Made by a program: the position numbers and the translations under genes
Notes under the pieces: generated by a model
Databases searched by the model: none
What the model saw: the letters and a program-made list of their open reading frames with translations, nothing else
What the model was told of the DNA's origin: nothing
In this document: piece by piece, positions 14,346 to 22,291 of the stretch
Numbering within the stretch: position 1 is the first letter of the stretch
How the letters are laid out: each line of letters starts with the position of its first letter
NCBI GenBank assembly: GCA_029856145.1
Contig: JAHQWK010000028.1
Location: 1 to 64,000 of the forward strand
Direction of reading: 5' to 3'
From: Promethearchaeia archaeon
GTDB taxonomy: Archaea > Asgardarchaeota > Lokiarchaeia > Sigyniarchaeales > SOKP01
Length of the DNA: 64,000 nucleotides

Positions 14346-14868
14346 TTATTCACCTCTTATTTTATCGTCATATTGTCCATTATCAATTCGCTTTTGGATG
14401 ATCCTAGGATCTTCTCCTTCTACTGTTAGTCCTACTGATAATGCTGTTCCTAACACTGTCTTTACAGCTGTTTTATATGTCTTATCTAAAAATTTCTCTC
14501 TTTTGCCATCAACTACATTCTGAATTTGGTCAAGTGTCAAATTCCCAATTATTTGTTCTGAAGTGGCAGAAGTTCCTTTTTCAGCACCAACTTCTTTAAG
14601 TAATAATGATGCTGTAGAAGGTGTTTCAATGAATATTTCAAACTGTTTTGTTTCTGTATCACATTCAATTCTAACCGGTACAGTTAACCCCTTAAAGACC
14701 ATTGTCTGTTTATTGATCTCGTCTACTACATCTTTAATGTATGCATCGAAAATCGAAATAATTTTCGTTTATGCCAGTAGGTCCAACAGTAGGTCCAATT
14801 GGCGGGCCACCTGACGCACTTCCTCCGGTCACAAGAGCCTTTACAACAACTTTTCCTTTTTCACTCAC
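14346..14868 (-). CDS. rpl11: Ribosomal protein uL11, split gene: exon 1 14868-14769, exon 2 14740-14346 (164 aa spliced)
   Basis: GTG start after GGTGA; exon 1 encodes ...VTGGSASGGPPIGPTVGPTGI; exon 2 continues NIKDVVDEINKQTMVFKGLTVPV... The ORF track only caught 14346-14702. Confidence 0.95.
14741..14768 (-). other. 28-nt bulge-helix-bulge mRNA intron in uL11
   Basis: GCAU/AUGC 4-bp central helix, 3-nt bulges AAA and AUA, inner stem CGAAAAU/AUUUUCG; removal at canonical sites restores the frame. Confidence 0.88.
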
Positions 14869-14920
14869 ATACTCTCACCGTTTAATTTTTCTTATTATAA
14901 TTCAAAAAATATTCCTAAGG

Positions 14921-14996
14921 TTAAGAACGCGAAATTTTTATGAATAACTTATTCAATATCTATTATATATTGAAACCGCTTTAATTTGCGTCCTAA
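14921..14996 (-). promoter_or_regulatory. Long imperfect hairpin/palindrome upstream of uL11 operon
   Basis: UUAGGACGCAAAUU pairs with AAUUUCGCGUUCUUAA, enclosing the perfect IR TTCAATAT-N7-ATATTGAA. Confidence 0.35.
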
Positions 14997-15114
14997 GTTT
15001 CTTAGAAAAATATTGTTTTGAACTTAGTGTGATTTAGAATAAAACAACATTAAAAAATTTTATTAAAATTATTCAGTTTTGGAGTCTACAACAGAGTGGT
15101 ATAATTTTAGAAAT

Positions 15115-15702
15115 TTAAAACCATTTGACAATATAATTACATTGATTATCTCCATTATTCCTACAAAGTCCTGAATCATCATGCTCAACTCGTAGAAACT
15201 TTGAATTTTTTGGAACAAAAATTCTTGCTGTATTTGTAATTATCCCTCTATCAAAATCACACGGATAAGAGTTATTACATATCATTTTTACTTCTTTATC
15301 ATCAATTTTTTCAAACCTATAATGACCAATTCCTTCTTTCATAGTTCCTGTTTCCGGATCATAAAGAATTTTATCCTCTATTCTATGACTCATGTGAAAA
15401 GCAATATCTATAGATGCCAGAGCCTTTTCGATACTGTCAAATTCTCGTGGCCACTTTGTATTCTCAGAAATTTTATTTCCTACTACATAAAGTGTATTTG
15501 GCCCAAAGACTTCAAATATTGTTTTAAATGCATCTAACCAGTTTTGTTGAGGATACCATTTATCTTTTTGAGGATTTTCAATATTATTATCAATTAAAAT
15601 TTGTAATATTCTTTCCTTGACAGTAGGTAATCCTTCAACCATTCCTAATATAGACTTTCCACTAACTTCTACTTTTGGATTAATTACTTTAAATTGCACC
15701 AA
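15115..15702 (-). CDS. V4R/H-NOX-like small-ligand sensor domain protein
   Basis: WYPQQNWLDAF, SIDIAFHMSHR, YPCDFDRGII...CR...C.Y.V.W pattern. Confidence 0.65.
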   Translation of the reverse strand: MVQFKVINPKVEVSGKSILGMVEGLPTVKERILQILIDNNIENPQKDKWYPQQNWLDAFKTIFEVFGPNTLYVVGNKISENTKWPREFDSIEKALASIDIAFHMSHRIEDKILYDPETGTMKEGIGHYRFEKIDDKEVKMICNNSYPCDFDRGIITNTARIFVPKNSKFLRVEHDDSGLCRNNGDNQCNYIVKWF

Positions 15703-15846
15703 ACTTTTTCACAAAATTAAAATGACTTATAAGTAATATGGATATAGAAATATTTCATTTACTTATAATTTGAATTTTAAATTACTTTTTCGTAGCAACC
15801 TCTTAAACAATATTTTCAATTACAAGAAAAAAAAAATTAAAAAAAA

Positions 15847-16032
15847 TTAAAATCTACAACAAAGACTACGTCCATGATCAAGATTATATTTGAAATATTC
15901 CTCAGATAATGTTTTCATAACTGTATCATAATCCAAATTTACTTCTTTAGATATGTCCTCAATCCCAATACCAGGTGTTGAGATTAATTCACAGATTTTT
16001 TTCTTAACTTCTTCGCTAACTTCTATACTCAT
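15847..16032 (-). CDS. Small HTH-like protein
   Basis: IEDISKEVNLDYDTVMKTL HTH pattern, C-terminal CC. Confidence 0.55.
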   Translation of the reverse strand: MSIEVSEEVKKKICELISTPGIGIEDISKEVNLDYDTVMKTLSEEYFKYNLDHGRSLCCRF

Positions 16033-20014: not shown

Positions 20015-20041
20015 AATTTCTTTTTATATTTATTCTAAATC

Positions 20042-20788
20042 ATGAAATATAATCTATGTATTCCAATTCCAATTAGATATACAACTATTAAAGAAGTTAA
20101 ACCAATAATTGAAAAAGTTATAAAATCAAAACCTAATCTAATTGAATTGAGATTTGATTATATTTCTAACGTTAATACTCTTTCTGTGGATTTCATAAGA
20201 GATTTATTGAATATTATTCGTCCTCATGCTGCCGTTATCTTTACTTTCAGAGATTCATCTGAAGGTGGTCAAATTCAAATAGAACAAAACGAGCGCTTTA
20301 AAATTTATAAATTGTTTATAGCCGTTAAACCTGATTATGTAGACCTTGAAATGAATACAGATAAAGACATATTAAAAGAAATTATTAATTTGTCTTCTCA
20401 AAAGGGAGTAAAATTAATTATTTCGCATCATAATTATGAAAAAACACTTACATATGAAGAGGGAATCTCTCTCATTCATGATTTTCACGAATATTTGATT
20501 AAAGTGCTGTTAATAAAACCTAAAATACTTGAAGATAATATTTATAAGATTATTTTTACGGCTCAAACTTTTGAGGACAATCTAATACCATTAAAAGTAT
20601 GTAAGGAATTCTCAAATTCAAATCAGAAAATTATCTCATTCTGCATGGGAACTTTAGGGTTTTTCTCAAGAATTATGTGTGTTATTAAAGGATCTTTTCT
20701 TACATATGCTTCTTTGGAAGAAAAAACAGCACCAGGACAAATTAATATTGAGAAAATGAAAGAAATATATGATCTAATTCTAGACTAG
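20042..20788 (+). CDS. aroD: Type I 3-dehydroquinate dehydratase
   Basis: IELRFD, FTFRDSSEGG, IISHH, FCMG, TAPGQI. Confidence 0.92.
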   Translation: MKYNLCIPIPIRYTTIKEVKPIIEKVIKSKPNLIELRFDYISNVNTLSVDFIRDLLNIIRPHAAVIFTFRDSSEGGQIQIEQNERFKIYKLFIAVKPDYVDLEMNTDKDILKEIINLSSQKGVKLIISHHNYEKTLTYEEGISLIHDFHEYLIKVLLIKPKILEDNIYKIIFTAQTFEDNLIPLKVCKEFSNSNQKIISFCMGTLGFFSRIMCVIKGSFLTYASLEEKTAPGQINIEKMKEIYDLILD

Positions 20789-20836
20789 CTTTAAATTCAT
20801 CATTCTTTAAAATTAGAATTATGAAGATTAAAAAAA

Positions 20837-22063
20837 GTGGATTTTTTACTTTATTATATGGTCGTTTATTTTGCATTTTTATTTCATATTTATCAACCTC
20901 CAGTTCAAATCCCTATAGTAATCAAACAAATAGTAAATGAATCCTATAAGCCTATAATGGAGGCTTTACAAGACCATCCAGAGGCAAAGATTACTTTAAA
21001 TATCAACGGTACTTTAACCGAACAGTTACATGATTTTGGCTATGACGATTTGATAGGAGCAATTACCACCCTTGCTTCAAAAGGGCAAATTGAATTTACA
21101 GGGTCAGGGAAATTTCACCCTCTACTTCCTTTGATCCCTGAGCCTGAAGTTAAACGCCAAATAACTCTAAATAATGAGACAAATCGACATTTTTTTGGGA
21201 AGCTTTATAATCCTCGCGGATTTTTCCCCCCAGAAATGGCTGTATCTGAAGAAGTTTTTAAAACTGTGAAAAAGTCTGGTTTTGATTGGATAATTATGAG
21301 TGGAATTGCTAATACTTTACCCAATTTTCCCACAAATAATATATCAATTCATCCCAATGGATTAAGATTGTTGTTTAGAGATGATTATATCTCAATTGAT
21401 TGTGCTTTTGATAAGATTAACAATGTTGATGCATTTATTAAACGCTTATATTATAAACACACATCAGAAGATTATTATGTTATACTTGCTATGGATGGTG
21501 AAACTTTTGGACACCATGTTAAGCACGCTATAAATAACTTTTTAATCCCATTATTTCAAATAGTCCCTCATAGAAATGATATTAATATCTGTACGATTTC
21601 CGAAATTGTTGACAGATTTCCTAAAGGCTTCACTCAAGTTCCACGAGATTCAAGTTGGTCAACAATGCCATATGACATTGCTACTGATGTTCCATTCCCT
21701 CTCTGGTTCGACCCTCAAAATGAAATACACCTAGAGCAGCACAGATTTTTTATGTATGCCCTTACAATGATCCACCTATCTGGTAAATATCGTGATAGTA
21801 TGGATGAGGATAAGAAAAGAATATTCGATAATGCGAGAAATCTATTAGATCGTGGAATTCACAGCTGTCAACAATGGTGGGCTTCACAACGCCCCTGGTA
21901 TTCACCTGATATGATTTTACGTGGATTAAATGAAGTATTAATGGCAAGTGTAAACGCAAAACGTAGTGTTCCCGAGAACAATCCAGATATTAAAGAAGCT
22001 ATGGAACTGATAATGGAAGATATGTTAAAAGCGCAAAATAAGATTGTTTTATCGTTAATATAG
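20837..22063 (+). CDS. Glycoside hydrolase family 57
   Basis: HIYQPP, HPLLPL, FFPPEMA, AMDGETFGHH. Confidence 0.92.
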   Translation: MDFLLYYMVVYFAFLFHIYQPPVQIPIVIKQIVNESYKPIMEALQDHPEAKITLNINGTLTEQLHDFGYDDLIGAITTLASKGQIEFTGSGKFHPLLPLIPEPEVKRQITLNNETNRHFFGKLYNPRGFFPPEMAVSEEVFKTVKKSGFDWIIMSGIANTLPNFPTNNISIHPNGLRLLFRDDYISIDCAFDKINNVDAFIKRLYYKHTSEDYYVILAMDGETFGHHVKHAINNFLIPLFQIVPHRNDINICTISEIVDRFPKGFTQVPRDSSWSTMPYDIATDVPFPLWFDPQNEIHLEQHRFFMYALTMIHLSGKYRDSMDEDKKRIFDNARNLLDRGIHSCQQWWASQRPWYSPDMILRGLNEVLMASVNAKRSVPENNPDIKEAMELIMEDMLKAQNKIVLSLI

Positions 22064-22091
22064 ATTTAAAAATAAGAAAAAAAATTATAAA

Positions 22092-22291
22092 TTAATTTTT
22101 TTTGAAAATATTACCACACCCACCGCACTTCATGTTTTTTGCATAGACTGGAGTGCCCTGCTTCAGCGGTAGGCTGAAATAGCTTTACCTATACTGTAGT
22201 AAAGCACGTTATTCCTGTCTGATTCTTCATGAAGCTTGCGTGGATTCTCATTGCCACATTGAGGACATTTTACTCTTTTATATTCTGTCAT
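22092..22291 (-). CDS. Small Zn-ribbon protein (56 aa spliced), split gene: exon 1 22291-22191, exon 2 22161-22092; absent from ORF track
   Basis: Spliced product MTEYKRVKCPQCGNENPRKLHEESDRNNVLYYSMQGTPVYAKNMKCGGCGNIFKKN; the two CxxCG knuckles lie in different frames before splicing. Confidence 0.85.
22162..22190 (-). other. 29-nt bulge-helix-bulge mRNA intron
   Basis: CAGU/GCUG central helix, bulges AUA and AAG, inner stems GGUA/UACC and GCU/AGC, exon-exon stem GUGCUUU/AGGGCAC. Confidence 0.82.

Follow-up and report, generated by a model that had tools for sequence, protein, structure and literature searches.

Protein-coding genes of a Promethearchaeia archaeon (Asgardarchaeota; Lokiarchaeia; Sigyniarchaeales; SOKP01) are interrupted by hairpin introns of 28-32 nucleotides (nt) that are predicted to be cut at a bulge-helix-bulge (BHB) and that share a degenerate apical loop. 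We give a probability of about 0.55 to the reading that these lineage-wide introns are spliced constitutively by the tRNA endonuclease EndA and by RtcB, aided by a factor that reads the loop. The analysis concerns the first 64,000 nt of contig JAHQWK010000028.1 (assembly GCA_029856145.1, forward strand), hereafter the window, together with the 3.55 Mb genome that carries it (30% guanine plus cytosine, GC). This genome is designated G000 and its relatives bear other G-numbers, while C-numbers are contigs, with the sign giving the strand.

A preliminary description of the window had located two small inserts on the minus strand, at 14768-14741 (intron 1) and 22190-22162 (intron 2), with UAUUUC at intron nt 9-14 and 10-15, respectively. 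Both are found where it placed them, and both have, as it said, lengths that are not multiples of three and premature stops, 11 and 9 codons beyond the 5' site. A canonical BHB has a 3-nt bulge on either side of a 4-bp helix and is cut behind the second base of each bulge. In each gene the predicted cuts coincide with the indel that separates it from its intronless orthologues, which identifies both inserts at the sequence level as BHB introns, canonical for intron 1 and relaxed for intron 2.

Two introns in genes of the window

Intron 1 (28 nt; 14741-14768, minus strand) splits rpl11, the gene of ribosomal protein uL11, after codon 33. Exon 1 (14769-14868, minus strand) runs from a GTG start over 33 codons and one nucleotide, in agreement with intronless orthologues, exon 2 (14346-14740, minus strand) covers profile positions 32-159 of NF002232, and removal of the intron yields a uL11 of 164 amino acids. 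The canonical hBHBh' is the minimum-energy fold (z -3.0). Its central helix of four base pairs (bp) joins the exon strand GCAU (14771-14774, minus strand) to AUGC at 14746-14743, and both folding and the orthologue set place the apical pentaloop AUUUC at intron nt 10-14 (14755-14759, minus strand). Among 24 congeners, eight carry the intron and 16 lack it cleanly, a distribution that takes six changes on the tree of these genomes, at least three of them forced by well-supported branches. U4 and C5, counted within the loop, are kept in 7/7 distinct orthologues. A GGC codon beside the intron is present in all eight carriers and in none of the 16 non-carriers. In a sequencing run labelled metatranscriptomic, one 251-nt contig matches 14725-15003 without a mismatch, except that precisely the 28 nt of intron 1 are missing. 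Because it retains the carrier-type GGC codon, it is more readily explained as a spliced product than as an intronless allele, and we regard it as no more than suggestive of splicing in vivo.

Relatives have two further intron sites in rpl11, A and B (intron 1 occupies site C), including variants of 35-37 nt whose additional letters form bulges on one arm or the other. G004 has introns at all three sites within about 60 nt of exon sequence, and rpl11 is an intron hotspot, in contrast to the main ribosomal cluster, where introns are almost absent. As for its annotation, a fragment of rpl11 of 118 amino acids is on record from 15 contigs.

Intron 2 (29 nt; 22162-22190, minus strand) lies between the two CxxC motifs of a small zinc-ribbon gene. 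Its exon 1 (22191-22291, minus strand; first CxxC, weak match to TIGR02605) was overlooked as an open reading frame at 50 amino acids, exon 2 (22092-22161, minus strand; second CxxC) is defined by alignment with orthologues, and without the intron a CxxC...CxxC protein of 56 amino acids results. The fold is a relaxed BHB with a central helix of 4 bp and with the exon helix missing, and in G000 it differs from the predicted minimum fold. Across 25 distinct orthologues, the central helix is paired in 100/100 cells and the outer stem in 95/100, with G-C/A-U swaps, whereas a competing fold is paired in 148/175 and 137/150 cells (85-91%), below the 95-100% of the BHB. The pentaloop AUUUC (intron nt 11-15; 22176-22180, minus strand), again given by folding and the orthologue set, has U4 in 25/25 orthologues and C5 in 21/25, with A in the remaining four. 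The intron is present in 25 of 30 congeners and absent from five. No identical contig in the sequencing runs bridges its exons. Relatives have two further intron sites in this gene, and in G015 a copy of intron 2, 77% identical and with the same helix letters at the site, sits 17 nt downstream; judged from its sequence, this second intron is a local intron duplication.

Census of mRNA introns in the genome

A genome-wide search with a BHB descriptor had been suggested. Used alone, the descriptor was swamped and was discarded as a finder (538,166 matches at 30% GC, unusable without homologues), and relaxed scans were noisy too. With a frame-restoration test and homologues added to it, the census brought out further introns, whose loops are not random. 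In total, 14 mRNA introns of 28-32 nt are found in G000, so the genome-wide micro-intron family that had been conjectured from two examples does exist, with a common size, geometry and loop. Besides the two in the window, introns are present in nfu (C10+33334), rnhB (C18+61155), uppS (C3-195615), pyrG (C23-64816), csp (C6-11627), a histone gene (29 nt; C1+34460), the eIF2-gamma gene (C5+34200), mvk (C3+203065), rps3 (C8-31453), and the genes of a membrane-protein paralogue (C32+34945), a B12-binding mutase subunit (C19+57732) and an FAD oxidoreductase (C2+161151). Intronless orthologues support 11 of the 14 and intronless paralogues two; for the FAD oxidoreductase, the evidence is frame restoration and fold only.

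Whatever the length of the intron, its removal restores the frame exactly at the BHB cut sites. Every unspliced form meets an early stop, usually within a catalytic or conserved motif close to the 5' end, so expression of the host genes depends on splicing. The introns stand between codons 4 and 76 in 13/14 cases, long genes such as pyrG included, and most interrupt a conserved motif somewhere in the first 80 codons. Relatives, whose DNA was sampled as tiles (about 0.8 Mb of G022 and about 0.4 Mb of G005), add seven sites, namely the two of rpl11 and the two of the zinc-ribbon gene already mentioned, with adk, EF-2 and nfu contributing one site apiece. G005 also has two near-identical histone genes; one is intronless, and the other carries, exactly where G000 has its 29-nt intron, an intron of 32 nt with an unrelated stem.

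Structure-blind comparisons covering 0.87 Mb via relatives and 1.23 Mb via paralogues did not reveal further mRNA introns. Since the genome scans missed three of the 14, we estimate the total in G000 at about 15-30, or about one per 250 kb. The expectation that many 'frameshifted' genes of this genome are really spliced is not sustained, as introns are few and eight of the 14 are in-frame 30-mers with a stop. Their distribution is uneven. Among 46 genomes, the nfu site of G000 is occupied in G000 only; the pyrG intron is found in about 7/41 genomes, the uppS intron in about 10/49 and the eIF2-gamma intron in 0/5 relatives, and in the main ribosomal-protein cluster of 20 genomes, the rps3 intron of G000 is the only one.

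A degenerate apical loop under selection

The signal shared by these introns is an apical loop of the form (A>N)-N-N-U-(C>A), located by unconstrained folding 8-10 bp from the BHB, at intron nt 10-16. The closing pair is free, and U-A, U-G, C-G, G-C and A-U all occur. The preliminary description had seen the common apex as UAUUUC and proposed to check the enrichment of this hexamer. A shared apex beyond chance is confirmed; the exact hexamer is rejected as the signal because the closing pair and positions 1-3 vary, and in its place stands a pentaloop with U4, C or A at position 5 and a preference for A1, under any closing pair. Mimicry of a UUCG tetraloop or of a T-loop was also discarded, as the letters after UC track the stem and the letter at -3 is not fixed. 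A resemblance between the nfu hairpin and the histone stem-loop of eukaryotes proved not to be general and was dropped.

In a loop-blind test, 10,863 candidates had the required geometry and 3,305 of them had homologue matches, 5.9% of these with U4-C5 (UC) in the loop. Among the well-supported mRNA sites, ten had UC, one had U4-A5 (UA) and none had another loop; three single weak matches were antisense or start-codon artefacts. Because the UC loop had been the reason for fetching six of these genes, what the test chiefly documents is that introns with other loops are lacking. Another test omits the two window introns and the six UC-filtered ones. It comprises 13 sites located without the loop, of which nine are UC and four UA, where the background frequencies are 4.9% for UC and 14.3% for UC or UA. 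By simple arithmetic, 13/13 corresponds to about 1e-11, or to 5e-10 when two likely local copies are left aside, the UA class having been admitted after the data were seen. Three of these 13 loops are GAUUC, ACUUA and the hexaloop AAAAUC.

Five orthologue sets retain U4 in 25/25, 27/28, 9/9, 7/7 and 6/7 sequences, and positions 2 and 3 of the rnhB loop are free (13/28 and 17/28). The rnhB intron is found in 81 genomes from eight genera of the family to which G000 belongs, with 72 UC and six UA loops, and its stems are rewritten in other genera though 78/81 genomes retain the loop. In contrast, 0/26 genomes of other families have an rnhB intron with the loop pattern. The carriers are kin and not independent, and turnover at neighbouring positions serves as the internal control. 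Compared across genomes in this way, the loop proves to be under selection. As a separate observation on this gene, the sequence downstream of the intron (C18+61185, and orthologues) reads DEAGRGS in many genomes, the usual form being DEAGRGP.

tRNA introns and descent of the class

The tRNA intron catalogue of G000 holds at least 22 introns, with some boundaries unsure and several multi-intron genes miscalled automatically. The tRNA introns resemble the mRNA introns in their 30-nt mode (12/22) and in a loop near nt 11-15, but the loop is found in about half of them whereas it is strict in mRNAs. The endonuclease is thus not dependent on the loop everywhere. ARAGORN missed G000 tRNA genes with T-loop or D-loop introns at C22:60520, C2:191725, C18:78295, C18:78474, C3:126100 and C8:10420, and some tRNAs hold two or three introns. 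The T-loop intron of tRNA-Gly(GCC) has a 14-nt core in common with the rpl11 intron of G015.

Transposition from tRNA introns had been offered as one possible origin. For the present tRNA introns this finds no support, since no sequence kinship rises above the null. Identity between introns at different sites averages 0.45, against 0.44 for a geometry-matched null; the best pair reaches 0.66, against a null median maximum of 0.70; and identity between mRNA and tRNA introns is lower (0.40). The class is therefore defined by shape and loop, not by sequence. The identity of at least 80% across host sites that would mark a mobile family with transposition of the Thermoproteales type is not seen, the best value being 0.66 and the sole local copy being 77% identical. 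In Asgard tRNA genes, little copying among introns is described (10.64898/2026.10.13.758758).

Splicing enzymes and a proposed reading of the loop

The preliminary description had also proposed to look for EndA and RtcB. G000 encodes RtcB and two EndA paralogues, one of them of the CSL type. The EndA genes lie at C11:135514-136104 (plus strand) and C24:99544-98930 (minus strand). This first paralogue has Tyr, His and Lys with a KPR CSL-type loop, and its best PDB match is 3P1Z/3AJV, a crenarchaeal catalytic subunit (E 1.6e-34), while in the other Asp replaces His. A two-subunit, CSL-type EndA cleaves relaxed motifs (PMC12397907), and the central helices of the mRNA introns are relaxed (2-4 pairs). 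Moreover, the BHB is often not the predicted minimum, lying a median of 2.7-5.2 kcal/mol above it at four of five sites by constrained folding, whose energies are rough. A putative archease-like gene adjoins rtcB on the opposite strand (C18:27832-29766).

In the splicing that we favour, the pre-mRNA would fold a BHB or relaxed BHB out of exon and intron letters, the two-subunit EndA, whose alpha subunit has the CSL-type loop, would cut each bulge behind its second base, and the exons would be joined by RtcB, all as a routine step. The loop would be a second recognition handle read by a protein, which may be a surface of EndA, RtcB/archease or an accessory RNA-binding factor. Such reading could aid the folding and splicing of a weak BHB in an mRNA, where the support of a tRNA body is missing. 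Gain and loss of the introns have recurred, with an occasional copy made to a nearby site. A protein-read loop appears most likely because U4 and C/A5 are kept in old fixed introns despite turnover of stem and loop, and the 8-10-bp spacing, the weak helices, the non-minimum BHB folds and a rule stricter in mRNAs than in tRNAs also lead to a loop reader. A more specific version, in which this Lokiarchaeia family would have a small mRNA-splicing system of its own, with a dedicated protein that reads the NNNU[C/A] loop at its fixed distance and recruits or licenses the tRNA endonuclease on mRNAs as an intron-definition step, is put forward tentatively.

Several points weigh against this reading. 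A loop-reading protein was not identified, and other loops occur in 3/81 rnhB and 2/7 pyrG introns. Six of the 14 introns were first chosen from a UC-filtered list, and only about nine of the 19-20 tRNA introns of mRNA-intron size (26-37 nt) have the loop. The constrained energies just given tell less for being rough. Finally, the contig that skips intron 1 has a short side of 14-16 nt and a depth of 3, and its run was judged to be probably DNA.

The loop could also be purely structural, (A)NNU(C/A) being a stable turn that nucleates the hairpin for EndA/RtcB splicing with no protein reader. A1 and C5 or A5 could form a non-canonical pair closing a triloop, and with alternative folds competing against the BHB, selection would favour a loop that nucleates the hairpin. 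We consider this explanation unlikely, however, because any closing pair is accepted, U4 is nearly invariant in contrast to a variable position 1, the 8-10-bp distance is held even where letters are bulged out (rpl11 sites A and B), and known stable tetraloops are unused. Rather improbable as well is a loop that acts as a mobility signal, through an excised circle and reverse splicing, or that is the relic of an ancestral mobile micro-intron, possibly out of tRNA genes. The patchy spread of the introns, with the repeated changes in the history of intron 1 (six, at least three forced), the nearby 77%-identical copy of intron 2 in G015 and the tRNA introns, with the same 30-nt mode and the loop in about half, would fit such an origin. 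It is opposed by the null-level identity across sites, lower still between mRNA and tRNA introns, by the rarity of copying among Asgard tRNA introns (10.64898/2026.10.13.758758), and by the old rnhB intron, which retains U4-C/A5 in 78/81 genomes where a pure relic would decay.

That the loop is read by a factor, as the preliminary description proposed, is thus our leading explanation, the loop being under selection, but the regulatory switch that it attached to this reading is unsupported. A regulon, in which a factor would switch the splicing of these mRNAs by condition in the manner of Ire1/RtcB, could draw on the early stops of the unspliced forms, which make expression depend on splicing, on a common loop that one factor could read, and on the competing fold of intron 2. 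We judge it very improbable because the hosts belong to no common pathway (uL11, uS3, eIF2-gamma, histone, Csp, RNase HII, CTP synthase, UppS, mevalonate kinase, Nfu, mutase and FAD oxidoreductase) and most introns are patchy, being missing from most congeners; moreover, intron 2 conserves its BHB better than its competing fold. Finally, the inserts might remain unspliced, as pseudogenes, assembly errors or recoding sites, and an unambiguous spliced read was indeed not seen. To this we give hardly any weight, since the hosts are single-copy essential genes, up to 81 genomes share one insert at one position, with compensatory changes between them, and lengths of 28-32 nt all restore the frame exactly at BHB cuts. 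Constitutive EndA/RtcB splicing aided by a loop-reading factor thus remains the reading that we prefer.

Other features of the genome

In three HdrA-like genes (C2-107861, C2-24339 and C25+78784), an in-frame TGA in the motif FPTDDCSI was considered as a sign of introns and rejected; as G000 encodes tRNA-Sec, these TGA are probably selenocysteine codons. At C2-152998..152850, a GlcD-like FAD-binding N-terminal fragment enters an HdrD-like C-terminal fragment out of frame, in what looks like a deletion or misassembly. For an E1/ThiF candidate, no stop-containing match was present among the best matches listed for the genus, which rank above 83 weaker ones. Rfam covariance models gave 0 matches at E up to 1 against ten intron-bearing loci. 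In the window, a CheB-like chemotaxis gene and its neighbour (15115-17207) lie between adk and rpl11, upstream of ribosomal protein genes.

Relation to known systems and significance

In the splicing of XBP1 and HAC1 by Ire1/RtcB, a short non-spliceosomal intron is removed with a shift of frame, ligation is of the RtcB type for XBP1, and the sequence of a loop is read; Ire1 cuts inside two 7-nt loops and is switched by stress. The introns described here are likewise short and non-spliceosomal, with a frame-changing removal and a loop sequence that would be read. They differ in that their predicted cuts fall in BHB bulges and their loop is internal to the intron, at a distance from these cuts, and in that a switch finds no support.

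A BHB intron within a coding sequence is known from the cbf5 pre-mRNA of Desulfurococcales and Sulfolobales, according to the passages of that work covered here (PMC2738675). As described in them, the cbf5 intron resembles ours in being a short BHB or relaxed BHB placed in a coding sequence at a catalytic motif, with a hetero-oligomeric EndA and lineage-specific gains and losses. It differs in concerning one crenarchaeal gene, against at least 14 genes per genome here. The same passages report no shared apical-loop signal, and the cbf5 loops were not compared directly with ours. The 5'-UTR (untranslated region) BHB intron of Haloferax HVO_1309 also places EndA on an mRNA, but it has 46 nt, stands in an untranslated region and is a single case (PMC7714728). 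The non-canonical tRNA introns of Asgard archaea share with ours the BHB boundaries, repeated gains, a two-subunit EndA and little reuse of sequence, and differ in their hosts, which are tRNA genes of other classes there and mRNAs here (10.64898/2026.10.13.758758). In the literature searched, splicing within a coding sequence is confirmed in archaea for cbf5 only, with one 5'-UTR case besides (PMC2738675, PMC7714728), no loop signal is reported, and the Asgard study is confined to tRNAs. The degenerate loop rule in archaeal mRNA introns comes from the present analysis.

More than 12 core genes per genome need splicing in an Asgard lineage, with a loop internal to the intron conserved apart from the BHB. 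In the literature searched, EndA is described as reading the shape of the splice site. The loop bears on how EndA chooses real introns among the thousands of BHB-like hairpins of an AT-rich transcriptome, and on the arrival and persistence of short introns in archaea. Annotation gains from it a rule for intron-bearing genes that are currently called truncated. The shared loop suggests that archaeal mRNA splicing includes a recognition step not recognised before; if a dedicated protein does read the loop, this would be protein-guided intron definition in archaeal relatives of eukaryotes.

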